Notes: generated by a model not told the origin, from the sequence alone. A stretch of DNA of 64,000 bases from Raillietiella orientalis (GCA_036172245.1 JAYWIR010000026.1:1054001-1118000); one strand, 5' to 3'. Shown: positions 1,991 through 48,109, counted from the stretch's first letter. A program made the numbers and translations.

Positions 1991-1993
1991 GCG

Positions 1994-14965: not shown

Positions 14966-15387
14966 CAGGCGAGATACGGCCGACACCCTGTGTGAGCTCG
15001 ACCTGGCCCTGCTGCAGGAGATCCACGTCATCACCGCGGCAGACTCCCAGGAGATCGAGACGATCGCGGGGGGTCGGTTGTATTGGCGATGCAGCCTCCG
15101 CAACACCTGCGGGGTCGCGTTCTTCGTGAAGCCGGCTATCGACGCTGCCGTGAAGGGCGTGTGCTTCGATGACGACGGTCGTGTCGGTCAGCTGACTCTC
15201 GACTGGTCCGACTCGATCGATCTGATCGACACGAATGTGTACGCCCCAACCGGTCAAAAGGGTTACAGCAACCGTACCAGGCTTCTTGAATCCCTGAAGC
15301 GCGACTGGCTGGCGAACACGAGCGTGTAGAAGGCTCACCTGATAGCGGGAGAATTCAATCTCCGTCTGCTAACAGGTGGGCGGCTGG

Positions 15388-17097
15388 TTGTCACCCGGGT
15401 GCGCCGGGGCGTTTATTATAAACTATCGGGGAACAGGGTTCCCGGACAAAGGGGAAAACAAGAGACGAAGGAGGTGGGATCCCCGACACGCAGGTCGGTG
15501 TGCCGAAAGTCCGGAACGGGAGGGAAGGGACCACAAACACACTACTATATAAAAAAATAAAAGAAAAATATGGAGGGCAGGGGACAGGGGTCTTTGGTAA
15601 ATCCGTTCCTTCCTTTCAAAACCGGCGATGGATGCCGGCGATTTCTCTCCTTACGCCCTGTGGCAGATGGGCCCACTGGGCAGCCGACGACATGTTTGCG
15701 CTGGCTAATCCGGTGGGCTGACAAAGGATGGCCAGCTTCTCCAACTCTCGGTGGGCCTTGTCGATGGCGCGGGTGCAACACACGGTTGCAACGACAGCAC
15801 CCAATGACAGGCCGCCTGGCGTCTAGAAGCGGCGCATCATCTCCCTCGCGGTGTCCCCCTGGTGCAGGAGAGCTGGAGCCAGCCTCCGCCACAGTCCTTC
15901 GAGGACACCGCAGACGAAGAGCAGAGGCGGGAGCGTTTCCACTTCCCCGCACCGCTTACAGTTTGGGGAGACGACTCCCCCGGAAACAAGGTTCGTGCGC
16001 TGGTTGGAGTGAAAACCCCAATGCACGAGCATAATCACGTCCTTCTTCCACGAAAGGGGGAACACAGAAGTGTTGAGACACGAGGGAGGAACCACAATTT
16101 CTTCAAGGGGCACACTCAAGTTTTCGCTCCACCGAAGGAGTCCCTTCGGAACGTGGCGAGGTGTGGCGGCGTCCGCCAGCTCGCAAGTCTTCCAGCCGCC
16201 AATAGGTCGCGTTGTTCCTGCGATGGTGCAGGCGACCTCCCATCTCGCCGGTTCGCAACTGTCATCTCTTGCCCTGAGGGCTGACAGTGCGTCTTTTAGG
16301 GGGGTGACGGCCAGGCGGGTCCACTTCTCCTGGCTGTTGCACACCTCATCCACCGTGCAGTACGGGGAGAGGTGAGCGCAACGGAGTTCCAGGAGGGAAA
16401 CATCCTGGTGCTTTGTCCAGCCATGCAACGGTTCCTGCCGCCGGGCTTGAAAGTTCGTTGGGCGGCAGGAGATCCATTCCTGGGCTTCCAGGAGCCGATA
16501 CAGCGGTTTCAAGGGGAAACCGAAGCTTCTCGTGGCGCGCTCCGTGTGCGGCCGCAGCGACAGAAGTCCATCGCTGGCTGTGCAGCGCCGCAAAAGCAGG
16601 CGCGCGGGAGCGCACCACGGAGTGGACCAAAGGTTGGCGCACAGGGCCAACATCCGAAGCTGCACCTGCAGCTCGATTCTCTCCAGCGTCAGGATGCCTA
16701 AGACAGCATCCCGACGCGGAGCCGCCAAGTCTTTCAGGCGGATCCTGGACCTCGCAGGTCCCCACAGAGCGTTCCTCAACAGGCTGTGCGCCTGGAGCTT
16801 GGCCGAGTAGGGGGGCGGGCAAACAAAAACCAGGGGGCGCAAGAGAGGGGCAACGAAGGTGTTACATATCGTGGTCCGATCCGGCAGGACGAACCTGCCA
16901 TGGTGGAACGGGCTCAGGGCATTCGAAGCCTTCCGAAGGCAGTCCGACCACACTTCCACTGGGCTGATGTTCCCCAGCGGAACGCCCAGATATTGCACGG
17001 AGGAAGCGGTCGGGATCCCCAGGCGGATCCAGTCGGACTGCCCCTCCCACGCCGCACCAATAGGTACGACCACGCTCTTGCTCCGGTTTACGCTCAT
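15388..17097 (-). mobile_element. LINE 3' half, family G (A-related C-terminus, distinct 3'UTR)
   Basis: SVNRSKS..QYLG..ARDDSCEPARWEV..CKRCGEVETLPPLLFVC. Ends AATAAACGCCCCGGCGCACCCGGGTG-ACAA on the minus strand. Confidence 0.9.
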
Positions 17098-17807
17098 GCC
17101 CCCGTTGTTGAAAGAATCCAGGATCCTGCCCCTCAAGTGGCAAGAGTCGGCGCTGCTCCTGTTGCACTGGAGTCTACCCTGCAACGCGCGCCGCTTCCAC
17201 TGGACGAGGGGAGCTGTGGATCCTGCGTGTGCCAGGAGCGGGGAGCGGGAGTCGCTTCCCCACCTTATTGTGGATTGTGCTGACCTCCGACCCCTTTGGG
17301 AACGGTTCGGGACGACCCTCGGGCTCCCTACGGGCAGCACCCCCAGAGACGTTCTTCGGCCCCTCTTCGTGAAGGACGCAATGCAGCCAGCCGCAGCCAT
17401 CGCAGCCTTGTGCTGCGTCCGTGGCATCGTGGCGGCATGGAGCGACGCCAACAACGAAGGAGTGGGTTCACAGGCGAGGGATGTCATCCCGTATGCCAAA
17501 CGCTTCTTGCGGAGAGCTGTTGGATGGCCCCAACTGGGGAATATGCAGACAGACCTCAAGGGGTTCGTTTGACGGATGGGCCCTCCCCACAGCAACCAGT
17601 GATCCCTTCCCTGCCCTCCAACTTCTTTTTGTTTGTTTCTTTTTATTTTTGTTTTTGTCTTATCCACATCCCCCTTCGCTGTCGGGGAGTGCCACGCCGG
17701 GCTGCGTCCCGGTGTCCCGTCAGGTCCTGTGTTTACTTTCGTGGTGGGGCCTCGTACCACGCATGCAGAGTTTACAAATAAACGCCCCGGGGGTACCCGG
17801 GTGATAA
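17098..17807 (+). mobile_element. Family B LINE copy B3, 0.7-kb 3' fragment
   Basis: Highly similar to 12325-13035, with 3'UTR and terminal hairpin. Confidence 0.93.
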
Positions 17808-20418
17808 CGCCGAAGCCCGGCGGAAGACGTTCCAGGGGAAACTGGTCGCAAAACTCGCGGACTGAGCACTTCATTTCGTCCCAGTCCGCGAGCGTCTTAA
17901 GATGGAATCCTCGCAGGAAGGCGCGCAGATGTTCCGCCGCTCCTGCGAGGCGCAACCAGTCCCCTGGCAGGCGCCACGTTTTCAGGGGAGGGCCCTTGTC
18001 GCGTGTATGTATCTCGAGCACGAGCCGTGGATGGTCGGACAGCTGTGCCGGGAGCGTTCCTCGATTTCCCACCCGCGTGCATAGGTGGTTGTCGAGGAAC
18101 ATGTGGTCGATGTTTTGATCTCTCCCGGCATCAGCGGCCAACAAGTTGCGCGCATTCATGGCTGCGCACAACTCGTTGACCAGTCGTGCTCGACTGCTGG
18201 GCGCACCTTCCAGCAGGCGGAGATTGAAGTCGCCCGCGATGAGGTGCGCTCGCCGTACGCTTGCTTCAGCTAACCAGTCTCGCCGCAGGGATTCGAAGAA
18301 AGCAGTGCGTTCCTCGGCCCTGTGGCTGCTCACCAAGGCGTACAGGTTCGTCACCCCGAAATCGATCGATTCGGACCACTTGAACACAAGCTGTCCAACT
18401 CGACCTTCCTCGTCGAACCTGACGCTGCGCAGTGCGTTGTCGACGGCTGGCTTCAGCATAAAGGCCACTTCGCAGGAACGGTCGTTTCCGTTCCTCCACA
18501 GTAGGCGCCCTCCTGCGATTCTTCCGATTTCCTGGACATCTCCTGCTCTGAGAACGTGCGTCTCTTGCAGGAGCACCAGGTCGAAGTCTCGCAGTATGGC
18601 GGCTACGTCTCGCCTCTTACCGTCGTCGCGCAACCCGTTGACGTTACAACAGGTGATGCGTAAGCGGCGGCAGGAGATGAGCCCACGGTGTATTTATGGT
18701 GGGGTGGAGGCGGCCTCCTCCCTTTCTGGAGGCGGCTCGTTGGTGGCCGTGACGACGGTCGGCTGCTCACACGGGAGCACGTCGTCTACAGCGACTTCCA
18801 TTGGGCTGGCTTCCGTGACACGGACGGGAGAAGGGTCGCGTGGCGCGACGCACATTGCCTCTGCCTCCGCACCCGAGGACATGGGCTCCTCTACTTGGGA
18901 TGAGGCGACACGTCTGAGGCATCCGGCCTTCTTGCCAGCCTTTCTCTTCGGCACAGCTGTGGAAGTAGAGCAACCGGCTTCAGCATCCGACCCGGAATAT
19001 TCCGGGCCCTTCGCCGTCGCGGGTCATCTCAAGGCCTTCTTTTCGGCCTTGGCAGGCTGCCGCAACATGGCTGCCAGCTCTTCCGCGGCCTGCGCGAAGG
19101 TCGCGTCTGTGATACGCGCCGCCTCATCGCTTTCCGCACCGACGATCGGTGCAGGCGCGACGGGGACGGCTTCATAGACCGGCGCGCAGACGTCCTTCGC
19201 TGGCAATGCCGGAGCGGCATTCTCTTCAGCTGATGGTGACGTCACTGCGGGCACGATCGGCTCCGACACGACGGTATCAATCGCGTTCACCGTTACTTTC
19301 TTCACGGCTCTTGCGATCGACACGCGTTCGATTTTCACTGAACAAGCGCGGACTGCCGGCTTCTGCTTCTTCGGAGCCGCCTTGTTAATTCTTTTTACCT
19401 CCTTGACGGAGGCTTGTTCTTCTTCACCACCTTCTGCCAACCTTCCTCGTTCTCGGCCCATTTTTCAGCTGGTTGTTCGCTGGAGGATGGCTGAGCAGCG
19501 GGTTGGTCGGCAGGGCGGGATTCTGCCAGTTGTTGGCTTCGGTCCTTTTCTTTCGGCGTCTCTTCCTTTCTCGCGCCTGACGGAACGGACCTTTTTCGGT
19601 TGGGGCACATCCGTCTCATGTGTCCCTTCTCCCCACAGCTTAAGCACACGATGTTGGGGCATTTCTTTTTTAAATGCCCCTACACCTGGCAAAAGCCGCA
19701 GTGAACGGGTTTCCCCACATACCGCAGGTCAATCTCCTCCTCCCCGAACTGCAGTCTGTGGGGTAGCCCACCCTCGGCACGGACCGTCACGCGCGCAGCG
19801 GCGTACGCACTAAAAGCCTTGGTGTAACCCAGGACATTGGGTTTCGCCCACAACGCGTGGACGGTTCCGTATTGCTCTAAAGATTCGCGAACGGCGGTCT
19901 TTGCCATTCGCATGGTGATGCCGGGGAGTCCGCCGTGAACGGGAAGATTCTTCGACCGTTCACGGTCACCGGCAGGCGGAGCAGCTGCTGAGCCATCCCT
20001 GCAGACTTGCAGTTCAGCTCAACCAGCTGCCCGCCACTTCGCACGGAAAGCCCGAGGACTTCGTCCTCCGGGACTTTCAATTGCTTAAATTCGGCCGCGA
20101 ACGACCGCAATACCGCGGAAGAGAACAGGCCACCTACCTTGTACAGGAGGGCCGGGTTGTATCCGTCGGCCATGTACGCCCGCTGTTCCTCTGCGGGGGG
20201 CGGCGCATGCGCCGCCACCACCGCGCTCCAAGCCCTCGCCGGGGCAGGGGACGAATCCGGGGGGGTGTTGGCACCAACATCCATGGGTTGGGGGGACGAG
20301 GCTCGCTGACCCCCCTCCGCCGTGTTTGCGGTGCCCAGGAACAACCGTTCCACAAAATACCGCAAACACTTGCAAAAAAAAGGTTTTCGGCAGCACCGAA
20401 AAACACGTCCTCTCACTG
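17808..20418 (-). mobile_element. Family C LINE copy C1, 5' half (ORF1 disrupted, EN, start of linker)
   Basis: 5' motif at 20399-20410. ORF1 fragments with CGFCQV and CLSCGEKGHMRRMC. EN LQETH, NLYA, GDFN, IDH, LSDH, up to ERLPPGFG. Confidence 0.9.
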
Positions 20419-20419
20419 C

Positions 20420-20986
20420 AGGTCCGGAATGAGCACTCGCCGTTCCTCGGCGAATGTGTCACGCCTCCGGGCTTCAGCCCTGCGGGCGCTCGCTCAGGCG
20501 CGAGTAACTCGTCGTTCAGCAGCGTTATCGGACTCCTTTACGGAGTCTGATGCTCGCGCGATCGACGTGCGCTTGCATCCGTCCCATCGCAACGGAATCG
20601 TCTTCTCGGCGCTCACAGAGGCGGACTTGCAATCGTTGACGGCGCTGGCTTTTTCCTGGGCAGAAGAACCCTCCGCGCGTGTTTTCTTGTTCACGCGGCT
20701 GTTCTTTGCCTTCAAAGAGCTCGCGGATGGAGGTTGCGAAGGCTTCGATGGAGATTTTTCTTTTCTCCTCTCCACAATCTCCCATTCTCCGTCACAATTT
20801 TCGGACGCTTTCGCGACTTTCGTCTCGGAAACCTCCGGAGCTTTCGCTGCCGCCTCTAGGGGCGTCGCTTTCGCCACGCCTTTAGAAGGAGGCAGCGGAG
20901 TCACCTTCTTGACAGTCGGGAGATCGCTCCTCTCCTGCAGAGTCGGCGAACTTCTGCGCAGCTCAAAGTATTGTGCACTTGACAAA
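20420..20986 (-). mobile_element. Internal ORF1-tail fragment of another LINE lineage (H)
   Basis: K/S/A-rich reading frame containing GEWEIVERRK, matching the GW(Q/E)xV motif of the other ORF1s. Confidence 0.55.
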
Positions 20987-21115
20987 TTAATCAGTTCATT
21001 GTGCTCGTGTGTGCCCGGAGAGGGGAAGTTTTCCAAACGAAACTAGAAAAGAAGCGCCGAGGAGATCGCGAAGGAAGACCTGCAGTGGTCCCGTGCAGCA
21101 AGACCAGCTGCCAGG

Positions 21116-22903
21116 ATGCAGGCACCTAGGAGAGGAGTGGAGAGACCGTCGTCCCCCATGGAAGCCATGGAGGTAACGTGCGGCAACGGCGAGGCGGTGG
21201 CAGGCATGCCGAGGATCGCGCCCGCGGCGGGCTTTGCTGCGCCGGCGGCAGCGATGCGAAGGGTCGTGCCCGCGGCGACGACGGCGGAGGTCGTGCCCGC
21301 GGCGGCGACGCCGAGGATCGTGCCCGCGGCGGGGAAGGTCGCGCCTGCGGCGGCGATGCCGAGGGTGCCGCCCGCGGCGGTAACGGCGGCAACGTCGAGG
21401 TTTGCGCCCGCGGCGGTGGCGTCCCAGGCGGGACCCGCGGGCGTCCACGCGGTGCAGGGAGCGACGCCATCTTGTTCGGCTGCGAAGTCGCAGCCCTTTT
21501 CTTATGCATCGGTGGCGGCTGGACAGGCGAGTGTCCACCCACCTAGGAAATTCGGTAAGCCGCTTAGCGGAAAAGTACTAAAAGTGGACCGACCAATAGT
21601 CGAAATAGGCCCCAACGTGAAGCCCATTATCTTCAAGACGGGGCTAATAAAATTTAATAACATCAGGGAGGTCTATTTGTCCCTCGACAAGACGGACATA
21701 GACTTTGATCGCATTCAGGCGATCATTCCATCAAACAACGGGTTCACAGTCTTTACAGACTGTGAAAACATTAGAGAGCGATTGATCCAGAAGGGGATCA
21801 ATATACAACGACGGATGGTTTGTGGTATTGGCGAGATGCCATACACAACCGTCTTTTTAAACGGCATCTCCATCCTCACACCGCAACTAGCGGTGTGGAA
21901 TTACTTGGAGCAGTTTGGGGAAGTTCTGGACCTTGATTTCCAGAACTTCTCTGAAAACATATTTTCTGGCGACATGATCGCCAAGATGAAGTTGAGGGAG
22001 GGAGTGGTGATCCCTGGATTGGCCGTTATTGACGAACAATCCCAGGGAGTGAATGTGCGTTACCGGCAACAACCGGTATTCTGCACCGGGTGCAAGCAGT
22101 TCGGTCACAGGGCCGGCTCTTGCCCAACGTGTCGTTGTTTCCCCTGCGGCAAAGTAGGACATCAAGTCCGAAACTGCCCGCATCCGGAGGTGTGCTCCTT
22201 CTGCAAGAAACACGGACATGCGAAATGGAGCTGTCCGGAGTTTGAAAACTGCAGAAGGATTCGAGGTCTCTCTCCCGTGAGAGAGAGAAACATCAAGGAG
22301 GCCGAACAGCCTCAGAAGGCAGGAAGGCAGAAAAAAGTGAAAGAAGCTGTCCCGGTGTCGGCGGACGGCTTCATAGAAGTGGGAAAGAAGGGAAAGAGGA
22401 GGATGCTCGTCAAGGAGCAAGGAACTCCTCAAATCCTGGAAGCAGCAGAGCAGGAAGGCGAGAAGATTGAGGTAGCGCAGGAAGGCGCGAAGGAAGAGAG
22501 ACAGGAAGCCACTAAAGTGTCGCAGGAGGCTCTGCAGACTACGGAGGAGTTGGCAACACTGGCGGAGGAGATCATGGAGGTGCAGAGCGGTCCTCAGCAA
22601 GAGAAAATCTTGCAGAAGATCTGCACTGCACAAGAGAACATCAACCAGGTGGTGGAGGTCGCAGAACCCGAGAAGTTAGAGGAACAGCTTCTCGACGTGA
22701 AGGCGAACTTCTGCGCCAAGGTCGAGATAGAGGCGCTATCTCGAAAATTGATCGAGCGCGCCGAACACTCGACGGAGGAGGCGGAAGTAACCGACCTCTC
22801 CGGAACAGAGAGTGACGTCGGCAGCGAGAAGCCCGCTGCTTCTTCATTGTCTGGAAGAGCACGCTCTCTCAGACAGAAGAAGCTCAGGAAGGCCAAGAAA
22901 TAG
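21116..22903 (+). CDS. ORF1 of D1: Ala/Pro repeat N-terminus, RRM-like region, 3 CCHC knuckles, acidic coiled-coil tail
   Basis: 595 aa intact ORF. CTGCKQFGHRAGSC, CFPCGKVGHQVRNC, CSFCKKHGHAKWSC. Confidence 0.9.
   Translation: MQAPRRGVERPSSPMEAMEVTCGNGEAVAGMPRIAPAAGFAAPAAAMRRVVPAATTAEVVPAAATPRIVPAAGKVAPAAAMPRVPPAAVTAATSRFAPAAVASQAGPAGVHAVQGATPSCSAAKSQPFSYASVAAGQASVHPPRKFGKPLSGKVLKVDRPIVEIGPNVKPIIFKTGLIKFNNIREVYLSLDKTDIDFDRIQAIIPSNNGFTVFTDCENIRERLIQKGINIQRRMVCGIGEMPYTTVFLNGISILTPQLAVWNYLEQFGEVLDLDFQNFSENIFSGDMIAKMKLREGVVIPGLAVIDEQSQGVNVRYRQQPVFCTGCKQFGHRAGSCPTCRCFPCGKVGHQVRNCPHPEVCSFCKKHGHAKWSCPEFENCRRIRGLSPVRERNIKEAEQPQKAGRQKKVKEAVPVSADGFIEVGKKGKRRMLVKEQGTPQILEAAEQEGEKIEVAQEGAKEERQEATKVSQEALQTTEELATLAEEIMEVQSGPQQEKILQKICTAQENINQVVEVAEPEKLEEQLLDVKANFCAKVEIEALSRKLIERAEHSTEEAEVTDLSGTESDVGSEKPAASSLSGRARSLRQKKLRKAKK
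21200..21450 (+). repeat. Degenerate CCCGCGGCG-core coding repeat (about 21-27 bp units)
   Basis: Encodes VVPAATT/IVPAAG/VPPAA units. Also present at about 26880-27120. Confidence 0.7.
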
Positions 22904-22916
22904 GTCTTCCCCTTTT

Positions 22917-25900
22917 ATGGCCTCTTCCCTATCGATCGCCAGGAGGCTGAACATCGCCTCCTGGAATGTAAACGGTATGGTCGACCAGGGAAAAAGAAGA
23001 AGGATTGTGCGGACCATCGCACAACAAGACATAGTGTGCCTGCAGGAGACCCACAAGATGGGTCTCGAGATTAGCCAGCAAATGAAACGGCGATTCAACG
23101 GGCAGATTTTCGTCAGCGAGGGAGAACGGAACACGCAGGGAGTGGCGGTCCTAATCAAGAACAACTTGGCCCCCACTATTCTGGAAGTGTTCTGTCCCCA
23201 ACCCGGACGAATCATCGGCGTGCGACTCGCCTGGTCCGCTACTATTCACCTCATCCTGGTGAACGTGTACGGACCGCACAGGCTAAAACATCGTTGTGCG
23301 GAGGCGCTGCATGCAGCACTCCGTGAAAAGGTTGCTTCCAAAGACGTCGTCATTGTTGCTGGCGATCTCAACATATTGGATGAGATCACTCACTCCGAAG
23401 ACGCCAGAGGAAGGACGGCGTATCGGCGGTTATCCGACCAGTTCGGACTGGTGTGGCGAACTGCAAGTCACAAGCCGATCGATCACGTCCTGCACAGCAC
23501 CGAACTTGGGAATCGCATCCAGGGTTTTCGAGACATTATGACCACGGTGTCCGATCACCCCCTGGAGCGGTTTTCCCTAAGAACGGAGAATCCTCGGCGG
23601 AGGCAAGGCACCAGGGCGGCGCTCATCAGCATGCCCGCCTGGTTCGAAACCCATCCCGGACATCAGGCTGTCCTGGAGACGATTCTGAAGGCAACAACAA
23701 TCCGAAGAGTCGCCGACTGGGACAGCCTGAAACACAGGATACACCTGTTTGCGAACATGCAGTTCGGGGATAGGCGCTTGAGGCAAGAGGCGTACCGGGA
23801 GCTGAACATCCAAGATCGCTTCCTCTCAAAGTACTTCGATCAGTACGAGAGACGGTACGTCCTCAATAACATAAACGGGGAAGTCGGCGTGCTGGAGTAG
23901 AGAAATCTGGCAACAGATATCTTCTGCATCCAGTACGACGGCCAAAAGCGACAGTCGTCTGAGGACATCGTGGATGCCTTTCACAGGCATTACACGAAAC
24001 ACTTCAGGCGACAACAGCTGTGTCGCTCTAGTCAACAGGCCTTCTTGAGCTATCTCGAGAAGAGGACCGACGACCTCCAGCGGAACAGACTGGAGGAGGA
24101 GTTCTCCGAAGAAGAGGTGAAGACTGCGTTTGGGCAACTTCGCAAGGACGTGGCAGCGGGCCCTGACAGTGTACCCATCACGCACTATCAGCGGAACCTG
24201 CACGCCTACCTGCGCTTGTTCCACCAGTTGACCCTCTGCATCCGGGAAGAAGGCAGACTACCTCAGTCCTTCTACGAGAGTCGGATGAGATTGCTGCCGA
24301 AAGGAGGCGACTCTACCCAGATCGCCCAATAGAGGCCAATCTCGATTCTAAACTCCGATGCCAAGTGGTTGGCGAAGATCTGGTCCAACCGCTTAGGCAA
24401 GGTCATGTCGAGGCTGATCTCTCCAGTCCAGACATGTGCAGTCCCAGGACGACACATGTCGGACAATGTCAAGTGTGCCCAGGCCACTGTTGGACTCAGT
24501 CGATACGTCGGGGAGAACCTGGTGCTGGTGTTCACTGACATGGAGAAGGCCTTCGACTCCATGGACAATGGGATGCTGCTGAAGGTTCTGGAGAAGCTAG
24601 GGCTTCCGGAACACTTCAGCAACTTCGTGAGGGCGGTACTCCAGAACCAGTACTGCCGGATCAAGATCAACGGCCAGGAGACGGCAGCAATCAGGATGGA
24701 ACGAGGAGTCCGACAGGGCGACTCGCTAAGTCCGATGCTGTTCGTCAGCTATATGGAGGCGTTGTCGTCCTTTATCGAGAAGAGCGGACGACTAAGCGGG
24801 ATTACCATCGATAGCCAGCGTCTTACCCATCTGGCATACGCCGATGATCTACTCTTCTTCATCAAGGGAGAGAAAAATCAGCGTGCGTTTCTGGATGTGG
24901 TGGACCAGATGGAACAGGGCTTGGGCTTAAAAATCAATTCCCAGAAGAGCCAGCTTTTGCCCGTCGGAATCCTGGATCTCTCCACTCTAACGGGTAGTGG
25001 ATTCCGTACGGTGGACACGGCCAAGTACCTGGGAGTCTACATCGGCGACGGCTCTGCGTCGAAGCTGCTGTGGAAAGAAATCCTGGGGAAAACGGCCAAG
25101 GAAGCAGCCAAGTACACCCGAACGGACCTTGGGATGAAGCGAAAGGCCAACATATGGAACGGAGTACTCCTTCCGAAAGTGCTCTTCGGGGCGGCCTTCG
25201 CGAGGATGAACAAGGACACTACTAGGGAGTTCGACAAGCTGCAAAGAAAAATACTCTGGAACCACTATCGCCCAAGAGTAAGACTGAAACCCCTGTGTCG
25301 TCCCAGGGAAGAAGGCGGTTCCGGGATGAAGTCGCTTGCACATTCCATGGAAATCATGGATACGCGACACATCCTGGACATTGCCACTTACTGGGATGAC
25401 TGGCCGTATGCGGCGCACAGGGCCTACGCGTTGTTGCTTAACAACTCGAAAGGCCTGATGACTGCGCTGCTAGGCATAGCAGGCAAATGAAACAAAATCG
25501 ACCCCACCTGGACGAGGAAGCAACGGCTGGTGCGGAAGCACCAAATCAAGATCGTGCCGCGAAGCAGGGAACTCTGGCAGGACGAGTCCATCCTGGTGAT
25601 CCCTTGGTTGCTTCCTGTCCCGCCGGACATGAGAAGCTGGATCAACCAGCGGTCCAGAGTTACCCTACTGCAAATCCAGGAGTGGAGGCGAGGAGGCTAC
25701 CTACATCAAACACGTATACTTCGGTATACAGAGATGATGTTAGGAAGGTTTACCCACAGGACCCGCGAAGTGTGGTTCAACCACAACGACTTCGCATGGT
25801 CGAGGGTAACCAGAACAAACCTCCAAAGGCTTATCCAAGAAAACGACCGTGACACCAGTGCCCTCCAGGAAGCCACCGAACGCTACGGGAGTGAACGGTT

Positions 25901-33068: not shown

Positions 33069-33070
33069 TC

Positions 33071-35457: not shown

Positions 35458-38400
35458 CGTAAAGGGAGGAATAATAACGCCGCACGAGGTGCCGTATTCT
35501 AGCCGGAGCCGAGTGCTCCCGGCCCTGGTCGTCCAGCAAGCTGGCCGATTCGGATTGCCAGGCTTGGAGCTCGGCTCCGGCTCGGTACTCTGCCAGGCGA
35601 CGGATGTTGGGGGTCCTTGCGTAACGGCGGGCATACAAATACGCCCGTTCGTTACGGACCCCATCCCCAAATCCGGGGTGCAGGCGATGCATGGGGAACT
35701 CCTCGCAGAACTTGCGGAACGAGGCCTTAAAAAGGTCCCAGTCAGCGAGATTCCGGAGGGTGACGCCTCTCAGGAATTGGCGAAGGTGTTCTTCCACACC
35801 TGAGAGTCTCGTCGAGTCCCCAGGCCGCCGCCACGCTCTGGAAGGGGGTCCCTTCTCGCGCCGGCATACCTTGATAATTAGCCGGGAATGGTCCGACAGC
35901 GTTGACGCAACTCTCCCCCGATTGCCGACCCGTGGACACAGGTCAGCATCCAGGAAATAATGGTCGATGCTGTTGGCCATTCCTGGGAGATCCCCCAACA
36001 AGTTGCGCGTGCGCATGGCAGCGCACAACTCGTTGGCCGTCCGCTCCTGTGCGTGGGCATCACCTGAGAGCAGGCGCAGGTTGAAATCGCCAGCAATCAG
36101 GTGAGCCCTTCGCACGTTCGCTTCCACCAGCCAGTCGCGCTCGAGGGTTTCCAGGAACGCCGCACGTTCCTGGTACCTGGCAGGACCGCTCGGGTGTTAC
36201 ACGTTTGTTACTTCAAGGTGGATCGCGTCGGAACACCTGAGAATCAGCAGGCCGACACGACAGGCTTCGTCGAAGCGCACGCCCTTCACAGCTGCGTCGA
36301 CCGCCGGATTCATAAACATCGCGACCCCACAGGTTTTTCGGGGGCCACATTGTCACACTAGCCGCCCCCGCTCGATTCTCTCGATCTGCTGGGCGTTCTC
36401 CGCGGTGATCACGTGGATCTCGTGTAGAAGCGCCAGGTCGAAGTCACGCAGGGTGGCGGCCGTGTCCCGTCTGTTGCCGTCGTCGCGCAGCCCGTTCACG
36501 TTTAACAGGCCACGCGTAACCGACGGGGACAGGCGAGATCACGTGTTACTCCTTAGAAAGTGACGATGGGGCGCCCGCCACCTGGTCGGGCGGGAGGGAT
36601 GGAGGAATGGAATCACCGTTCACCGGTTCTCCCTCCTCCATGGGGGCCAATTCCTCGGCGAAGCGCAACGGTTGAAGGAAGCGTTTTTCACGCACCTGCT
36701 CCACTTCTTCCATGGGGCCGATTCGTCGGCTGCGCTGAACGGCAGGGGAGAGCGGTTGTCAACTGTCTGCTCCCCCTCCTCCATGGTTATCTCCTCAGCA
36801 GGTCCCACCGTTGGAAGGGGTCGGCAATCACTTACCTTCTCCCCCCCCCTCCATGGGGGTCGCCAGCTGCTCGGAAGCGGAGGGTGGAAAAATCCCTCCC
36901 TCCGTTCCCACGCTGCCGGCTTCCCCCTCGGATGCCGGTGCGTCCCCCTCCTTCTTTGTCGGGATGCGCTTCTTGGGATTCTTGGACTTCCGTCCAGTCT
37001 TCTTCGGAGGCGCCTCCGCGGAGGAGGACGCACTTCCGGCATCCAGTTCGTGGTCACCTGTCCGAGGTGCCTTGCTCGCGGCCGGCCTTCGCAAGGCCTT
37101 TCGCGCGCCGTTCTCACGGTCCGCGAGTTCGACCGCGAGCTCTTCCGCCGCCTGTTGGAAGGCGGAGTCCTCGATTGCGGCGAGCGCGTCGCTCGGCTCC
37201 CCCCCTGTTTGCACAGAGGGTTCGCCTTCCGCGGTCGCGACTTCGTCGTCAACGAGGCGGGGGATATCTCCTCTGGTAGCGGTCCCGGGGACCTCCACAC
37301 GCTTCCAAGCTTCCGAACATTCGCGGAGCAACGCGCGGTGTTGTCTCCTATTTAAAGGGATGTCGCGGGTTCCGCTGTCGGGCCTTCGGTTTTCTAGCTC
37401 TTTTTATATTTAGGCTTCGCCTTATGCCAGCCCTCGCTCTCTCCAGTGTCGTCGGGAGTATCCTCGACTGGCGCTTGCTGCACGGGTTCGGGCTCTGGCT
37501 GTGGGTTCCGCCTCTCGGGTGCCTCCTTAGGCTTGTCCGGTCGCCCCGCGCGGTTCCCTTTGGCTTTTTTCAAAGCAGGGGGAGCCGGGATTTGGCGTTC
37601 AGGACACACTTTCCGCAGGTGGCTCTTTTCGCCGCAGTGGAAGCACTGGATGTGGGGGCATCGTTTTTTGAGGTGCCCTGTGGCATCGCAGTGTCCACAG
37701 TACTTGGGCTCACTCACGTACCAGACGTCGACGACCTCGTTGCCGACGTCGAGTTTGTAGGGCAGCGCACCATTTCGTGGACGGTCACACGCGCTGCTGC
37801 CATGCCACTAAACAGTCTTCCGTATGTTTGGAAGAATTCCGGCTTGGTCCAGAGCGCGTGCACCGTTCCGAATTTACTCAATTCCTCCTTCACGCCGGCT
37901 TTCGACATGCGCAGGGTTACTCCCGTAAGATGCGCTACCACAGTGCAATCCTAGGTTACCGGGAAGACCCTTCTGCCTTCCAGCATAAGGGGGGTATTCA
38001 GCAGGCGCTGAGCCAAGCTTGCATCTTTGCAAGTCAGCTCCACCAGCTGACCCCCACTGAGCACTGAAAGACCTTCCAGGTCCTCCTCTTTTACATCTAG
38101 CCGCTGCAACTCCCTCTCGAAGTTGCGAACGGTATTTCCCACAAACAAATTTCCTACCTTGTAAATCAAGGACGGCTTGTATCCTTGTTCAAGGTAGGCG
38201 CGTTGTTCTGCTGCGGCTGCAGGAGATGGCGCTGCAGCCACGGCGCTTCAGGTCTTCGTCGTTGCCGAGTTAGGATCCAAGGACGCGGTTGTCCCCTTTT
38301 TCAAGGGGGTGGTTGCGCCCTTTTCCAAGGCGGCGGTTGTCCCCTTTTTCCAGGAGGTGGTTGCGGCCTTTTGCACGAGGGCGGCTGCTCCCTTTTTCAA

Positions 38401-38680
38401 GGAGGCGGTAGCTCTCGTTTCCGGAGGGGCGGTTGCATCCTTTTCCAAGGGGGCGGTTGCCCGATTTTTCAAGGAAGCGGTTGCTCTCTCCTCCGTGGAG
38501 GTGATTGCCCCCACCCTTGTGGGTTGGGGAGAGGAACCATCCTCTCCCCCGCCAACTTCCATCGCGGTGTCCTCAGGCATTCCTGCCATGGAAAACCGGC
38601 GATGCACCACGCACTAACACACCAAAAAAGGCTTCGAAAACTCGCGCGGCAGGAGGGCAGAAAAAACACGTCCGCACACT
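35458..38680 (-). mobile_element. Family B LINE copy B5, 5' half (5'UTR, ORF1, EN, linker up to YYSSLY)
   Basis: 5' motif at 38661-38673. ORF1 homologous to 13142 (CGHCDATGHLKKRC). EN GDFNLRLL, IDH, LSDH. Confidence 0.92.
38270..38486 (-). repeat. 24-bp (8-aa) coding minisatellite, about 9 units, in the ORF1 N-terminus of B5
   Basis: ATASLKNR ATAPLEKD ATAPPETR ATASLKKG AAALVQKA ATTSWKKG TTAALEKG ATTPLKKG TTASLDPN. Confidence 0.85.
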
Positions 38681-41406
38681 CCCTTTACGCCAGAGCGCCT
38701 CCGGAACAAGATGCCTCTCGGCGCTTGCTTCCGAACGGGGCCTTGGCAATAGGGAAAGAAAAGAAGGAAAGCCTCGACGAGCCATTTAGCACCGGCGAAA
38801 TTCTCGCCGGTATTAATAGGCTCAAAAGGCGTAAATCTCCAGGGGAGGAGTACTTGCCCGCGGAGTTCTTTCAGAGCTTCTCGGAAGAGCTGGCCCGCCT
38901 GCTGCTGAAGTTGACAAGGTTGATCCGAGACGTTGGTAATATTCCCACCTCGTTTCGGTCAGACAGAGTGAGGCTACTTCCGAAAGGGGAGACCTCAGAA
39001 AATTGAACTGGCGTCCTATCACGATCGTGAACACGGACGTCAAGTTGCTCGCCGGGCTTCGCGTTTGGGCAGGTGGCTGGATCTATAATTAGCCCGAGCA
39101 GACGTATGCTGTTCCCGGGCGAAGTATGGATGCCAACCTCCTCTTCGCGAGCACATGGTTGCACGCGCAGAGGTGTGAAAAAAAAGGGAAAGAGAAAATC
39201 GGCAACTCTACTATGAGGCCGCCAGTAGGGCAGGGAAGAAATTCCCGGGCGGGAAAGGGGGCCCTTGCGCTCGCAGTAGATCTTCATAAGGCGTTCGACT
39301 GTGTTGACCAGGAGCTACTGTTGGAGCTCCTGGGTCGCATGGGCTTTCCACCCTCCTACATCACCTACCTGCGCTCTTGCAGGCGGAATGCGATGATCTC
39401 AATTTCTTTTAGTTGTCACAAGTTGTATGGCGTGCCGGTACGGCGGGGTATAAGGCAGGGCAATATCCTCAGTTCCCTGCTCTTCAGCACCTACTTTGAG
39501 TTGGTGCTGAGAGTGTATAGGGTGACATTAGCCCCCTTGCCGAGCTCGTTACCTGGCACGCCCGCCATTGCAGCCTATGCCGACGATCTTTTGCTGTTGT
39601 TGCCGTTGTCCACCCCGGCGAGGGCGGTCGGGGATTCCTTTGATCTGCTGAGCCGCGGGATCGGACTGGCGGTGAACATGGCGAAGACGTCGGTGATGTC
39701 AGTTGGTGCGGCGTAGGCAAGGCAGCAGGACTGGGTTCGTTTGGGGATCCCCACGGCGAGGTGCTTCGAGTACCTTGGTGTGCCGTTGGGGGACTATTTC
39801 CTTGCGGAAGCGTGGTGCAGCTGCCTCCAAAAGATTGAGACGGCGATCGGCCCGTTCCTAGAAGGCAAGTTTTACTTCCCGGAACGGGCCGCGGTTTGGA
39901 ACGCATTTGCGGCCCTCATCCTCCGCCCCTTGCTTTTTGTTTGTCCCGCTTTTGTGGAATGTAAGAAGCGGACGGAGGACCTACTGCGAATAGTCCTCTG
40001 GGGCAAGGGGAGGCCCCGAGTACCTCTTAGGGACTTATGCGCTCCACGTCGAAACGGCGGTGGTGGCCTCTTCACGCTGAAGAGTGTGGAAATTTAGCTG
40101 CGATGGCGCACCCTCGCCATCACTGCGAAGATGCGGAGCACCCTTGGTGCATTTCGGCTCGCCTTTTTGGCAGTCGTTTGTCCAGATGCGAAGGACTCGC
40201 GTCTTTTTTTCTGTGCTCCGGCCAAAGATCCGAAGATGTGGCCTACTGCTCGGGCGCATAGCAGCCCTGGCGAAGGAGAACAGCTGGATAGTTTGTAGCC
40301 TTGCTAACTCCTTCGCCTGGCTGGAGGAGACTGCTGGCACGTGGGCGAAGATAAATGAAAGAAACCACGAGAAACCACGAGCCTTCGAGTCGGCTTCTAC
40401 GCTCGCCGCACTATGCGTGAAATTCTTTAATTTTTCGCGAGTTGCACTTGGGCAGAGACGAATCCGCTTGCTACGACGATGCCCTACCTCCGGAGGGCGC
40501 TTAACGGCAGCCACAAGCCGAGGTGGCAAGTCTCCTGCCGAATCGCAGGCAGGAAGAAGAAGTTAAGCGGCTGGACCACAGGAGAACTGGCGGACGCCAC
40601 GACACCGAGCGTCCAGCCGAGAGGATTGACGAGATGGGGCGAGCTGCTCGTCATCCCCATGGATGTGCTGAAGTGGCTCCCGGTGTTGTTTGAATCAAGG
40701 ATCCTGCCCCTTAAGTGGCAAGAATCGGCGCTGCTTCTGTTACATTGAGGTTTACCCTGCAACGCACGCCGCTTCCACTGGACCAGGGGAGCATTGGATC
40801 CTCATTTTACTAGGTGCAGAGAGCGGGAATCTCTCCCAACTACTTCTTGACTGTGCTGCCCTTCGTCCCCTCTGGGAACGGTTCGGGACGACCCTCGGTC
40901 TCCCTGTGGGCAGCCAACCCAGTGACGTTCTCCGTCTTCTCTTCGTGCGGGACGAACTTCAGCCAGCTGCAGCCGTGGCAGCACTCTGCTGTATCCGAGG
41001 CATCGTGGCGGCCTGAAGCGATACCAGGAAAGAGAGAGTGGATTCAAACGCGATGGCTGTCATCCCGTATGCTGTTCGCTTCCTGCGGAGAGCTATTGGA
41101 TGGCCCCAGCTGGGAAGATTGAAGATGGACCTCGAGGGTATCCTGATAAGGATTGACTCTCCTCAAGGTGGACCGTGATCCCTTCCCTTCCTTCCAAAAA
41201 CTTCTTTTTCCTTTGTTTTCTGGTTTATTTTTCTTTTTGTTTTTCCCCTCATCCCCTTCCACTGCGGAGGAGAGTCACATCGTGCTGCGTCCCAGTGTCC
41301 CGGCAGGTCCGGCATTACGTGGCCGTTAGAGGGGCCTTGTACCACATACTGTAAAGACGAGAGAAACGTTTGTTCTAATAAACGTCCCGAAGTATCCGGT
41401 TGGCAT
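38679..41406 (+). mobile_element. Family B LINE copy B6, from linker SLY to 3' end, decayed
   Basis: SLYARAPP.., DLHKAFD, YADD, 3'UTR, degenerate hairpin + GCAT. Confidence 0.92.
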
Positions 41407-41829
41407 CGCCAAAGCCCAAGGGGAGACGTTCCAGGGGAAACTGGTCGCAAAACTCGCGGACTGAGCATTTCCTTTCGTCCCAGTTTGCGAGCGTCTCAAG
41501 ATGGAATCCTCACAGGAAGGCTCGTAGATGTTCCGCCGCTACTGCGAGGCGAAACCAGTCCTCTGGCAGACGCCACGTTTTTAAGGAAGGGCTTTAATTG
41601 CGTGGATGTAACTCGAGCACGGGCCGTAGGTGGTCGGACATCTCTGCCGGGAGCGTTCCTCGAGTTCCCACTCGCGTGCACAGGTGGTTGTCGAAGAACA
41701 TGTGATCGATGTTCCGATCTCTCCCGGCATCACCGGCCAACAAGTTGCGCGCATTCATTGCTGCGCACAACTCGTTGACCAGTCGTGCTCGACTGCTGGG
41801 CGCACCTGCCAGCAAGCGGAGATTGAAGT

Positions 41830-43825
41830 TTATAACCCGGTCACGCCGGGGCGTTTATTAATAATGATAAACTGGTCAGGGACAATGTCCTTAACCAACA
41901 GAACGACAGGGAACATAGAGAAATTGCCGGCACGCAGGCCTGGTAAACAAACCGCTCGCAACGTAGGAGGAATAAGGGGATAACAAACAAAAATACAAAA
42001 ACTGGAGGAAAGGGTAACGGGTCTTTGGTTAGGCTCCGTACTCACGGAGATTTAAACGGGAAGCACCTGAAATGTTCCGGAGCCTATAGGGACGCGGGTG
42101 TAAAAAAAAATAAAAAATTTGTTTATGGAGGGTAGGGCAATGATCACCGGGTTGGCCGCTGCTGAGCGTGTGTAAACCGGCGGTGTATTTCGGCGAGATT
42201 CCTCTTTGACTCCTCTGTCAAATGAGGCCATCTAGCAACTGCTACCATGTAGAAGGATGCTTTGCTGATTACCTCTTGGTGCTGCCCGTTCATAACCAAC
42301 GCCTGGCGGACCGAAACTATCGCGCGTATGCAACCGATGGTTGCAATCCTGGCGCTTAGGGACAGCCCGCTCGGCGTGAAGAATCGTCGCAGCAAGTCTC
42401 TTGCGGTGTCCACGGGATGCACTAGTGCTGTTGTCAGCCTACGCGACGGTCCTTGTAGGACATTGCAGTCCCGAAGTAGGTGTGAGATCGAGTCCGTCGA
42501 TCCGCACCGAACGCAGTTGGCAGATGCAAGTCCCCCGGAGTCTCAATGCCAACGCTCGTTGCATTGAAAACCAAAGTGAACGAAAAGCAGCACAGCTTGT
42601 TTCCAAGCAAGGGGGAGCAGCGAACTTTGAACACACTGCGGAGGGACTACAAGTTCTTCGGGGGTGACAGCAAGTTCTTCTGCCCACCGGAGGAGTCCCT
42701 TTGAAGTACAACGAGGAGTGGCGGCGTCCGCCAAATCACTAGTCTTCCAGGCGCCAAGGAGTTTTGTTTTCTCCGCTATTGTGCAGGAAACCTCCCACCT
42801 TGCCGGTTCGCAACTGTCGTTTTCTGACTTGAAGGCAGACAGCGCTGAGGCAGGAGGCGTGGCAGTCAGGATAGAAAACTTCACCTCGTCCTGCAGTACT
42901 TCTTCCAAAGATCGCGGAAGAAGATAGCGCAGTGGACGAATATCTTCAGGGCGCATTTTTTGGAACGCTGCCCAGGATTCAACAGATCCTCAAGCCAAGC
43001 TTTGAAGTTCATTGGGCGGCAGGAGATCCACGAATGGGCATCCAGAAGTGCGGTCAACTGCCGCAATGGAAGCCCAAAACCTCGCTTCCTGTATTGGGTG
43101 CCCGGCAAACGCGAGAGCAGTCCGTCGCTCCCGGCGCATCTCCGCAGGAAAATGCGTGCAGGCACACACAAATGGGATGTCCACAGATGAGCACACAGTG
43201 CCAGAAGTCGCAACTGCACCTGTAGTCCGATTCGCTCCATTGTCAGGATACCCAAACCAAAATCCCGACGTGGAGCAGCCAAGTCTTTAAGGCGGATCCT
43301 GGATCTCGCCGGACCCTAGAGAGCGTTCCTGAGCAGGCGTTTAGCTCGCTGTTTCGCCGCAGAGGGGGGGTCCAAAACAAAAAACAGGGGACGGAGGAGG
43401 GGGGCCACAAAGGTGTTTCAAATAGTCGCCCGTTCCTGCAAGGTAAACTTGCCGTTAATGAACGGGATGATGGCCAACTCTGCTTTCTGAAGGCAGTCCG
43501 ACCACGCTTTGGCTGCGCCGACAGCGCCCAACGGAACGCCAAGGTACTTAAAGTACCCGTCCGTGGGGATCCCCAGGCGGATCCAGTCTGACTGCCCCTT
43601 CCACGACGCACCCACCGGTACGACCACGCTCTTCTCCCTGTTTACGCTTACGCCCGCTACACGACGAACCAGGTCGAAGAAATCTTCGACACTGGACGCC
43701 GGGATGGACATGGGGAGCAGAAGAAGCAGGTCATCAGCGTAGGCGGACACGGCAGGCGTTCCCGGGCAGGAGCTTGGCAAGTGAGACAGCATCAGCCTGT
43801 ATGCTCTTAGCACCAACTCAAAGAA
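41830..43825 (-). mobile_element. Family A LINE copy A3, 5'-truncated, TSD ACTTCAATC
   Basis: Colinear with 2200-4197. GATTGAAGT at 41821-41829 and 43826-43834. Confidence 0.95.
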
Positions 43826-44240
43826 GATTGAAGTCACCCGTAATAAGGTGCGCCCTTCGCACGCCAGCTTCAGCCAGCCAGTCTTGCCGCAGGGATTCGA
43901 AGAATGCAGTGCGTTCCTCCGTCCTGTGGCTGCCCACAAGAGCGTAGAGGTTCGTGACCACGAGGTCGATCGAGTCGGACCACTTGAACACAAGCTGCCC
44001 AACTCGACCGTCCTCGTCGGACCGTACGCTGCGCAGTGTGCTGTCGACGGCTTTTTTAAGCAAAAAGGCCACTCCTCAAGAGCGGTCGTTTCCATTTCTC
44101 CACAGTCTCCGGCCTCCTGCGATTCTTTCGATTTCCTGGATGTCTCCTGCTCTGAGAACATGCGTCTCTTGCAGCTGCACCAGGTCGAAGTCTCGCAGTA
44201 TGGCGGCTAAGTCTCGCCTATTTCCTCCGTCGCGCAACCC

Positions 44241-45840
44241 CCTGCGGAAGCGTGGTCCTGCAGCCTCCAAAAAGTCGAGACGGCGATCGACCCGTTCCTG
44301 GGAGGCAAGTTTCACTTGCCAGAAAGGGCCGCGGTTTAGAATGCCTTCGCGGCCCCCATCCTCCGCCCCTTGCTTTTTGTTTGCCCCGCCTCCGTGGAAT
44401 CTAAAAAGCGGACGAAGGACCTCCTACGCATAGCCCTTTGGGCAAGGGGAGGCCCCGAGTCCGTTTGAAGGACTTGTGCGCTCCGCGTCGGGACGGCGGT
44501 CTCAGCATCCTGACGCTGGAGCGCGTGGAAATCCAGCTGCGATGGCGAACCTTCGCCATCGCAGCGAAGATGTGGAACACCGCTTGGTGCATTCCGGCCC
44601 GCCTCCTGGCCAGGCATGTGTCCCGCTGCGAAGGACTCGCATCGTTTCTTCTGTGCCCTGGCCGGAAGATTCGAAGATGCGGTCTACTGCTCGGCCGCAT
44701 GGCAACCCTGGCGGAAGAGAACGACTGGATGGTTTGTGGCCCCGCTAACTCCTCCGCTTGGCTGGAGGAGAATGCTGGCACCTGGGCCAAGCAGAACCTG
44801 AGGTGCGAAGACCCGATGAACTGCCTCCGAGTCGGCTTTTACACCCGCCGAACTCTGCGTGGAATTCTTGAATTACCACCGAGTTGCACGTGGGCGGAAG
44901 GGACACCCCTTGCTACGGCGATGCCCTTCCTCCAAAGGGCGCTTAACGATAGCCGGAAGCCGAGGTGGCAAGTCTGCTGCCGTATCGCAGGCAGAGAGAA
45001 GATGATGAGCGGCTGGACCATGGGAGAGTTGACAGATGCGACGACCCCTAGTCTCCAGCCGCGTGTCTTAAGAAGATGGGGCGAGCTGCTCGGCATTCGA
45101 TTGGATGACCTGAAGTGGCCTCCGGTTCTACTTGGATTCAGGATTCTTTCCCTGAAGTGGCAAGAATCGGCGCTTCTGTGGCTGCATTGGGGTCTACCCT
45201 GCAACGCGCGCCGCTTCCACTGGACGCGGGGAAGAGTAAATCCTGCGTGTGCCAGGTGTGGGGAGCAGGAGTCGCTCCCCCACCTCTTAGTTGATTGCCC
45301 TGCCGTCCGGATTCTTTGGGATCGTCTCAAATCGGCCCTTGGGATACAGGATGGTGGCAATGTTGGATGTGTCTACAGTCTTGTCTTCGTGCGAGACGCC
45401 CTCAGTCCAGCCGCAGCCCTGGCAGCACTTTGCTGCATTCGTGGTATCGTGGCGGTCTGGAGTGATGCCGAAGATGAAGACTGCATCGTGAGGGACGTCA
45501 TCGAGTATGCTGTTTGCTTCCTGCAGAGAGCTACTGGATGGCCCCATCTGAGAAAAATGAAAATGGAACTCGAAGGCATCCTGCAAAGGATGGGCTCTCC
45601 CAGCAGTTGTCTGTGATTCCTTCCCGGCCCTCCAAACTCCTTTGGTTTTTTTTTTATTATTTTATTTTATTTCTGTTTTCTCTTCCATCCCCTTCTACTG
45701 CCGAGGAGAGCCGCACCGGGCTGCGTCCCGGTGTCCCGGCAGGTCCGGTATTGCGTGGTCGGCAGTAAGGCCTTGTACCACGTTCTGTAATGACTGTAGA
45801 AATGTTTTTTAATAAACCTCCCGGCGTATCCGGGTGGCAT
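44241..45840 (+). mobile_element. Family B LINE copy B7, 5'-truncated, TSD CGTCGCGCAACCC
   Basis: Colinear with 11447-13035. Direct repeat at 44228-44240 and 45841-45853. Confidence 0.95.
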
Positions 45841-46759
45841 CGTCGCGCAACCCGTTGACGTTCCAACAGGTGATGCGCAGGCGTCGGAAGGAGGCGAGCC
45901 CGCGCATCGGTGTAGTTATGGTTAGGTGGAGGTTGCCTCCTCCCTTTCGGGAGGCTGCTTGTTGGCGGCCGTGACGACGGTCGGCTGCTCACACGGGAGC
46001 ACGTCGTCGACAGCGATTTCCATTTCTGAGGATTCCAGGACACGGACGGGAGAGGGTTCGCGTGGCGCAACACACATCGATTCCTCTTCCGTGCCCGAGG
46101 ACATGGCCTCGTTCACCTGGGAAGCGGCCACACGTCTCGGGACCCCGACCTTTTGTACGGCCTTCCGTACAGTTCCGTACTTTTCCAGACTTTCGCGAAC
46201 GGCGGTCTTTGCTATCCTCATTGTTATTCCGGTGAGGTGGAGAACGATCGAATTGTCCGCCGTGAACGGGAAGATTCTTCTCATGTTCACGCTCACCGGC
46301 AGGCGCAGCTGCTGTTGAGCCATCCCTGCAGACTTGCAGTTCAGCTCAACCAGCTGCCCGCCACTTCGCACCGAAAGCCCGAGGATTTCTTCCTCCGGGA
46401 CTTTCAATTTCTTAAATTCTGCGGCGAAAGACCGCAAGACTGCGGGGGAGTACAGGCCATTTCCCTTATAAAGCAGGGCCGGGTTCTACCCGTCGGCCAT
46501 GTACGCCCGCTGTTCCTCTGCGGGGGGCGGCGCAGGCGCCGCGACCACCGCGCTCCAAGCCCTCGCCGGGGCGGGGGACTAATCTGTGGGGGGATGGCCC
46601 TTACATCCATGGGTTGGGAGGACGAGGCTCGCTCGCCCCCCTCCGCCGTTTTGGCGGCGTCCTCGGGCGTTTCTGCCCAGGAACAACCGCGCTGAAAGCA
46701 CCGAAACCACTGGCGAAAAAACGCTTTCTCGGAGAACCACAAAAACGCGTCTTTCTTGT

Positions 46760-48103: not shown

Positions 48104-48109
48104 TGGCTG

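Follow-up and report, generated by a model that had tools for sequence, protein, structure and literature searches.

The 64,000-nt stretch of Raillietiella orientalis DNA analysed here (GCA_036172245.1, JAYWIR010000026.1:1054001-1118000; hereafter the window, with positions counted from its first base) is largely a nest of long interspersed nuclear elements (LINEs) inserted into one another, and our subject is where, and in which orientation, the 3′ ends of these copies lie in their hosts. The LINE pile covers ~51 kb and is GC-rich (0.53-0.63), and the GC content falls to 0.43-0.45 at 54-58 kb. Among the long open reading frames (ORFs), ORF2 codes for an APE-type endonuclease followed by a reverse transcriptase (Pfam Exo_endo_phos, RVT_1), and ORF1 has a CCHC knuckle. 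The best PDB match of ORF2 is human L1 ORF2p (E = 1e-44), with R2 proteins at 1e-15; its best database relative is 24% identical, the nearest proteins (including fish and fungal reverse transcriptases) are 21-28% identical, and an Atlas search with ORF2 returned generic endonuclease/reverse transcriptase clusters only. Self-comparison splits the copies into four groups: A (A1, A2 and A3), X (X, Y, Xz, X2, T1, X4, X5 and X6; evidently the family that an initial annotation of this DNA called B), Z (Z and Z′, evidently its G, together with W and L, which are related 5′ parts) and the unrelated C. Copies across the window are 65-93% identical to one another. The A, X and Z elements are APE-type (L1-superfamily) LINEs and have typical LINE features, including target-site duplications (TSDs) of 13 bp (X4) and 9 bp (A3) and 5′-truncated copies (A2, A3, Xz, X2, X4 and X5). 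All counts below refer to this one 64-kb window and its eight target loci.

Families A, X and Z have a common 3′ end, with AATAAA, a CCCGG/CCGGG hairpin and a tail of 4-5 nt; at the ends that touch junctions it takes the form AAACGCCCCGGCGTnnCCGGGT(G) followed by the tail, which reads ATAA, TATA, ACAA, GCAT or GGTT. None of the A, X or Z 3′ ends in the window carries a poly(A) tail, which is typical of L1 proper and is not universal among LINEs. The five pairs of the hairpin are essentially invariant and show no covariation, and metagenome scans gave no match to the 3′ motif. There are eleven hairpin-type 3′ ends in the window; that of T1 was placed by alignment and that of X6 is degenerate. 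At the opposite end a 5′-terminal block (G)AGTG.G.GGACGTGTTTTT, with GGACGTGTTTTT ~8-10 nt from the element start, is common to A1, Y, T1, Z, Z′, W and L (GGACGTGTTTTT at 4213-4224 and 13058-13069 on the plus strand, and at 1971-1982, 20399-20410, 38662-38673, 46741-46752 and 48087-48098 on the minus strand), and may be a promoter or a 5′-end recognition element. The parts of the nest are as follows; a slash within or after a motif marks the point of insertion.

1..1990, minus strand: L, the 5′ part of a LINE (ORF2 aa 7-85, ORF1 and the 5′ motif at 1971-1982), head-to-head with A2
1991..4197, plus strand: A2, A family, 5′-truncated, starting near ORF2 aa 565
4198-4206: 9-bp spacer ATTTCAATC between A2 and A1
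4207..9692, plus strand: A1, full-length A family, 5′ terminus GAGTGCGGACGTGTTTTT, 3′ end ...GGGTGATAA, sense in host X at GDFN/LRLL
9693..13039, plus strand: X, X family, from ORF2 aa 165 through the 3′ end, hosting A2 and A1, 3′ tail ...GGGTGTATA
13040..13050: spacer of 11 bp, CCTTCACGGCC, separating the 3′ end of X from the 5′ terminus of Y, TSD-like, the reverse complement of X-family AVKG codons
13051..15387, plus strand: Y, X family, from the 5′ terminus through ORF1 to ORF2 aa 172, cut by the Z 3′ end after ...LRLLTGGRL
15388..20420, minus strand: Z, Z family, from the 3′ end at 15388 to the 5′ terminus (motif at 20399-20410), with Xz replacing ORF2 aa 308-704
17098..17807, plus strand: Xz, a 710-bp X-family 3′ fragment, antisense in Z, its tail GATAA adjoining host CGCCGAAGCCC (GFG, 17808)
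20421..20935, minus strand: V, from an A-like element (C-terminal part of ORF1), collinear with R
20936..32309, plus strand: C array, head-to-tail (C0 tail 20936-21042, C1 21043-~26725, C2 26726-32309), antisense in RV ORF1
32310..33070, minus strand: R, ORF1 aa ~53-300 of RV, adjoining the truncated 5′ end of X2
33071..35457, plus strand: X2, X family, 5′-truncated, 3′ tail ...GGGTTGCAT up to 35457
35458..38680, minus strand: T1, inverted arm, reaching from ORF2 aa 376 to the 5′ terminus AGTGTGCGGACGTGTTTTT
38679..41406, plus strand: T1, direct arm, from ORF2 aa 374 through the 3′ end, its tail GGCAT adjoining Z′ CGCCAAAGCCC (GFG, 41407)
41407..46760, minus strand: Z′, Z-family 5′ part, ORF2 aa 300 to the 5′ terminus, in pieces 41407-41829, 43826-44240 and 45841-46760
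41830..43825, minus strand: A3, A family, 5′-truncated, sense in Z′ at GDFN/LRLL
41821-41829 and 43826-43834: 9-bp TSD of A3, GATTGAAGT (plus strand)
44241..45840, plus strand: X4, X family, 5′-truncated, antisense in Z′ after ...NGLRDD
44228-44240 and 45841-45853: 13-bp TSD of X4, CGTCGCGCAACCC
46761..48106, minus strand: W, the 5′ part of a further LINE (ORF1, 5′ motif at 48087-48098)
48229..51117, plus strand: degenerate X6 (to ~49180) and then X5 (49181-51117), head-to-tail

V and R together form one element (RV) that is divided by the C array; R as a continuation of W was ruled out, since R and W span the same ORF1 region. On the 5′ side of Xz ~1.19 kb of the host Z (aa 308-704) is gone, and the 3′ flank of the X6-X5 pair holds no recognisable LINE.

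The initial annotation had named six junctions between X- or Z-family elements and a host LINE, and all six are found where it placed them, with the motifs that it gave and with antisense ORF2 in each flank. The minus-strand flanks read ...CWNVNGLRDD/ at 45841, ...RLPLGFG/ at 41407, ...RLPPGFG/ at 17808 and ...VRRYYSSLY/ at 35458, and the plus-strand flank in Y, ...AGEFNLRLLTGGRL/ at 15387, adjoins the minus-strand 3′ end of Z. The junction at 45841 is a clean insertion of X4 in Z′, and those at 17808 and 41407 fall on one and the same nucleotide of two Z-family hosts (Z and Z′). The sixth, at 13040-13050, is an 11-bp segment that matches the antisense of the AVKG codons of Y (15146-15156) at 10 of 11 positions; this codon string is present in the X-family copies Y and T1 (inverted arm) and not in the Z-family copies, and the 11-mer itself has six matches in all at one mismatch or fewer, with 1.6 expected. 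Judged on this resemblance, 13040 as an antisense AVKG target is suggestive only.

The junction at 35458 (SSLY) is not a target, because it is the internal breakpoint of T1, an element whose real target is GFG at 41407. The inverted minus-strand arm of T1 joins the direct plus-strand arm head-to-head, the first ending at aa 376 and the second starting at aa 374, and the arms have CCCTTTACG, 9-11 nt, in common. They are 78.0% (inverted) and 80.8% (direct) identical to the matching parts of X, and the inverted arm stops at the conserved 5′ terminus; T1 is one full-length, 5′-inverted, twin-primed insertion. For human L1, inverted copies are put at 18-22% of insertions and the median overlap at 12 bp (PMC12016303), and the overlap of T1 is in keeping with these figures; T1 differs from mammalian L1 twin priming in being full-length to the true 5′ terminus, GC-rich and without poly(A), and in having a TSD of at most 2-5 nt, since its flanks share only CG, or possibly CATCG. 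T1 follows directly on the 3′ end of X2, and both are at the GFG site of Z′. X2 was presumably the first occupant of that site; if it came after T1 instead, the nick is still at the CG of the GFG site. Twin priming was also considered for the junction between Y and Z and for X plus Y, and was rejected on arm order and orientation. At two further head-to-head junctions, ~1990 (L and A2) and 48106-48229 (W and X6), a minus-strand 5′ terminus faces a truncated plus-strand 5′ end, and these could be additional twin-primed insertions or chimeric events; L continues beyond the window.

At two sites independent hosts carry insertions at the identical nucleotide, and some sequence-level target preference therefore exists; to this extent the earlier view that the insertions are nonrandom is borne out. 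The first of these is the GFG site. A single alignment (17098-18230 with 40676-41829; 80.3% identity over 1158 bp) crosses both GFG junctions, as might be expected if segmental duplication, gene conversion or composite retrotransposition had copied blocks of host plus insert, with little or no preference for a site, and such clusters are liable to ectopic recombination. However, Z and Z′, the hosts, have 89.8% identity over 422 bp, and the inserts only 75.2% (Xz and T1) and 68.7% (Xz and X2); Xz is closer to X (87.4%), which occupies another site; and the insert tails (ATAA and GCAT) and the 5′ truncation points differ. With host identity so far above insert identity, the hits on GFG in Z and in Z′ are independent events, with Z′ hit twice.

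The second site is GDFN/LRLL, where the relationship is the other way round. A1 and A3 lie in sense orientation at G^AYTTCAATC^TCCGC, each with a 9-bp TSD, and they are 88.7% identical, whereas their hosts X and Z′ are only 62.8% identical and the host flanks diverge directly past the junction. The order A2-ATTTCAATC-A1-ATTTCAATC-host is a third use of this site, at the first of the two loci. Inheritance of copied junctions fits neither site, and we regard it as very improbable. The chance of coinciding in both nucleotide and strand is ~3e-4 for GFG and 1e-4 to 1e-3 for GDFN, and the exact-nucleotide reuse of two sites in independent hosts is real within this window. Contigs from a DNA run on 33000-52000 (X1; 533 contigs, of which 10 are 99% or more alike, 24 are 95-99%, 131 are 90-95% and 368 are below 90%) include one that runs from 41819 directly to 43825 and so shows the A3 site empty. 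The other X1 joints, among those listed, are cross-mappings between homologous copies, and no new 3′-end junction was readable from these contigs (6 of 434 loose ends listed).

The eleven 3′ ends collapse to eight target loci, given here with the host and its ORF2 position, the inserted elements and their orientation to the host.

Locus 1, X aa 165: A2 and A1, sense
Locus 2, Z′ aa 165: A3, sense
Locus 3, AVKG remnant: X and Y, antisense, weak
Locus 4, Y aa 172: Z, antisense
Locus 5, Z aa 307: Xz, antisense
Locus 6, Z′ aa 300: X2 and T1, antisense
Locus 7, Z′ aa 27: X4, antisense
Locus 8, flank not a recognisable LINE: X6 and X5

At least six (or seven) of the eight loci are in ORF2 aa 1-307 of another LINE, a segment that makes up 15.6% of a 5.9-kb element and ~12% of the present LINE DNA of the window (from a tally of the map), and the probability of six or more in eight is 3e-4 to 8e-5. 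This positional clustering is real within the window. The initial annotation had put the insertions within about the first 1.1 kb of ORF2; the clustering stands, and the true span is somewhat shorter, at aa 27-307 or ~0.9 kb.

Orientation is a different matter, and a rule that 3′ ends always land antisense to the host is not established. The six-of-six count advanced for it was too high: one junction is the twin-priming breakpoint, two (17808 and 41407) are one site, 13040 is weak, and the ends number eleven and not six, those outside the six including three A-family ends that are sense at GDFN/LRLL and the X6 and X5 ends at the locus without a LINE flank. For the X and Z families the firm loci are antisense in 4/4 cases (two-sided P = 0.125), or in 5/5 with the weak one (P = 0.0625), with none sense; for all three families with the common 3′ end the figure is 5/7 (P = 0.45). 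A general rule could arise from a strand-asymmetric state of the host, such as nicking of the displaced sense strand of an R-loop or open chromatin near the promoter, and this would suit both the uniform X and Z orientation and target sites that are several sequences with one base in common. All sites are moreover in the 5′ third of the host, with Z into Y a minus-into-plus insertion and the others plus-into-minus. But the probabilities above are modest, and the A family, with the same 3′ hairpin and in the same ~0.9-kb region, is sense in 3/3 cases, so that orientation follows the site rather than a general rule; this also counts against the R-loop or chromatin cause that had been suggested. 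Regional state would not lead one to expect reuse of exact nucleotides in independent hosts, and no X or A insertion was seen in the 5′ untranslated region (UTR) or ORF1 of the hosts, which would share that state. We consider a general antisense rule of this kind unlikely. Antisense or double-stranded RNA against endonuclease regions, which the initial annotation expected from the arrangement, would be a hypothetical consequence.

The sequences at the sites point to preference of an imperfect sort. The Z-family version of the GFG site, GGGCTTYGGCG/, is occupied in 2/2 copies, and A1, X and T1 (inverted arm), which differ there, are empty; the site in X, which is empty, reads CGGATTCGGCG, and the corresponding site in Z reads GGGCTTCGGCG. 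TTCAATC/TCCG is occupied in 2/4 copies that have the site and in 0/2 without it. The observation that targets start with C, mostly CG, holds for 5/5 X and Z sites, and reflects a G directly before the nick. Two explanations offered with it have fared less well. Preferences specific to subfamilies do not agree with the finding that the sisters X and Xz (87.4% identical) are at AVKG and GFG respectively and that Xz, T1 and X2 (69-75%) are all at GFG, and targeting guided by homology is without support, as the 3′ tails of the RNA showed no complementarity to the primer strands where the nicks lie.

Four things are shown by the sequence: the anatomy of the junctions, the TSDs, the twin-primed state of T1 and the independence of hits at the same site. 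They can be brought together if the nest was built by site-preferring target-primed reverse transcription (TPRT), with occupied sites being refilled and a single copy twin-primed, and we think this probable, though with a good deal of room for doubt. The elements would prefer a few exact nick sites in the first ~0.9 kb of the ORF2 of a sibling LINE, which is endonuclease-coding. X and Z elements would nick the host sense strand after ...GCGCGACG (NGLRDD), ...GTGAAGG (AVKG), ...GGCGGCTG(G) (LTGGRL) or ...GGGCTTYGGCG (GFG) and thus come to lie antisense, and A elements would nick the other strand at G^AYTTCAATC^TCCGC (GDFN/LRLL) and come to lie sense, so that orientation would be set site by site. 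Occupied sites were refilled, and each newcomer would land between the 3′ end of the resident and the target, giving head-to-tail arrays with TSD spacers of 9-11 bp. Five head-to-tail arrays are present: A2-9bp-A1, X-11bp-Y, X2-T1, X6-X5 and C0-C1-C2. Twin priming (T1) and deletions of target DNA linked to insertion (Xz, and probably X2 and Z) would create the head-to-head junctions and the mismatched 5′ flanks, and the apparent antisense rule would be a product of ordinary TPRT features and strong site preference. The cause of site choice would presumably be recognition of sequence by ORF2p.

Several points weigh against this account. The sample is one window with eight target loci, and three of the hits (X2/T1, A3 and X4) share the single host Z′, of which perhaps only the 5′ 1.8 kb, about half of it endonuclease-coding, was present when A3 and X4 arrived. 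Specificity is loose or incomplete, because near-identical or identical sites stay empty: the NGLRDD core TGCGCGACG/ is identical in four copies and occupied in one, and the GFG site of X is empty though only two positions off the Z version. The X and Z sites have no common recognition motif beyond the G before the nick. Z has V (from the ORF1 of an A-like element) as its 5′ flank and X2 has R, and neither of these carries on from the 3′ flank of the same copy; only by supposing insertion-linked deletions do we explain the mismatch. The TSD of T1, at most 2-5 nt, is a further difficulty.

Strand is confounded as well. All eight X-family pieces (9693-51117), at five independent loci, are on the plus strand, and the hosts are mostly on the minus strand (Z, Z′, W, RV and L), so that a bias of the chromosome or cluster strand, for example through the direction of replication forks, could make the antisense relation to the host incidental. 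The initial annotation had held orientation to be relative to the host and not to the chromosome; one minus-into-plus case (Z into Y) agrees with this, and the uniform strand of the X family leaves the two confounded. Yet 5/5 gives P = 0.0625 for strand bias, the same as for the host-relative rule, the 3′ end is the same in the minus-strand elements Z, Z′ and A3, and reuse of an exact site would still need a cause at the level of sequence; strand bias as the explanation seems to us quite unlikely.

The assembly, too, stands without same-genome read support, and most of the X1 contigs (368/533) are less than 90% alike. In a region as repetitive as this one, mis-joins among near-identical repeats might be thought to have made some or all of the junctions. 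The copies are, however, 65-93% identical and not near-identical, and mis-joining does not make TSDs of 9, 11 and 13 bp or a coherent twin-priming overlap, and we give this explanation almost no weight.

Among known systems, a site-preferring TPRT nest resembling the Zepp or Tx1 clusters is the best reading, and one that we hold with somewhat more belief than doubt. Zepp and ZeppL form nested, self-targeting L1-type clusters with tandem 3′ arrays in green algae, according to the portions of PMC8226300 and PMC3446292 consulted. Copies within copies and the five head-to-tail arrays are like these; in the window, unlike Zepp in those portions, diverged families target each other at defined endonuclease-coding nucleotides and without poly(A); the likeness is one of arrangement. 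A single cluster on each chromosome, as a putative centromere, is a further mark of Zepp and ZeppL. The Tx1 clade comprises APE-type LINEs with target preference, some of which insert into transposons (Tx1D, Mariner-N4_AMi and particular LTR elements; extracts of PMC4494074). Independent insertions at the same nucleotide (GFG, GDFN) are similar, but the targets here are coding sequences of sibling LINEs, with several sites per family and incomplete occupancy; the likeness is one of behaviour. Nested transposable elements in the human genome are described as inserting at specific positions of their targets and often in one orientation (Levy, Schwartz and Ast 2010, PMC2836564, in part); those hotspots largely reflect the A/T-rich, TTTT/A-type preference of the L1 endonuclease, whereas here the motifs are GC-rich and coding and diverged lineages use the same nucleotide. 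We found no report of LINEs targeting LINE endonuclease-coding sites in the literature searched, although the primary Zepp papers, which were outside the comparison, may hold such detail.

A more specific possibility, which we put forward tentatively and think rather doubtful, is that sibling LINE families are mutual site-specific parasites, with an ORF2p that recognises short sequences encoding conserved endonuclease motifs (N-G-L, G-D-F-N and G-F-G), disabling the endonuclease of a rival and seeding a landing pad that renews itself. If true, this would account for elements piling up in a nest instead of spreading through genes. A preference that held genome-wide would amount to a guild of LINEs with the endonuclease-coding DNA of other LINEs as a safe harbour. 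The targets of site-specific LINEs listed in the sections of PMC4494074 and PMC4640811 that we drew on are rDNA, snRNA genes, microsatellites, telomeres, DNA transposons and LTR elements, and LINE endonuclease-coding DNA would be a target class outside those lists. It would also provide a simple sequence-level account of self-growing, LINE-only nests such as those of algal centromeres, and the defined GC-rich cleavage sites are open to direct test with a recombinant endonuclease domain.

Some other features of the window may be mentioned. The C family has ~27% amino acid identity to the other LINEs, and its array comprises the C0 tail and two ~5.6-kb copies that are 86% identical; it lies in RV with little or no loss of host, and C1 has long open ORFs. 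A 956-aa stop-free frame in Z (15823-18693, minus strand) runs through the endonuclease, the antisense of Xz and the C-terminal part of the reverse transcriptase, and antisense frames are also open over X-family 3′ regions elsewhere (12151-12919 and 44839-45372, both minus strand). These antisense open frames may be an effect of GC-rich codon usage. The ORFs at 50-64 kb match no Pfam family except for a weak reverse transcriptase match. Old, degenerate LINE fragments lie past the edge of the nest at 52023-52118 (minus strand), 53032-53978 and 63014-63673 (both plus strand), where the GC content is 0.43-0.45, and one of them covers the GFG region uninterrupted. Z′ lacks ~950 bp of ORF1 that is present in Z (Z 18915-19861 against Z′ 46137-46169), and A1 lacks ~400 bp of 3′ UTR that is present in A2 and A3 (A2 3770-~4165 against A1 ~9671). 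Tandem repeats occur in the N-terminal part of ORF1 in three elements, at 38278-38488 (24/72 bp), 1792-1874 (42 bp) and 21206-21417 (27/48 bp).

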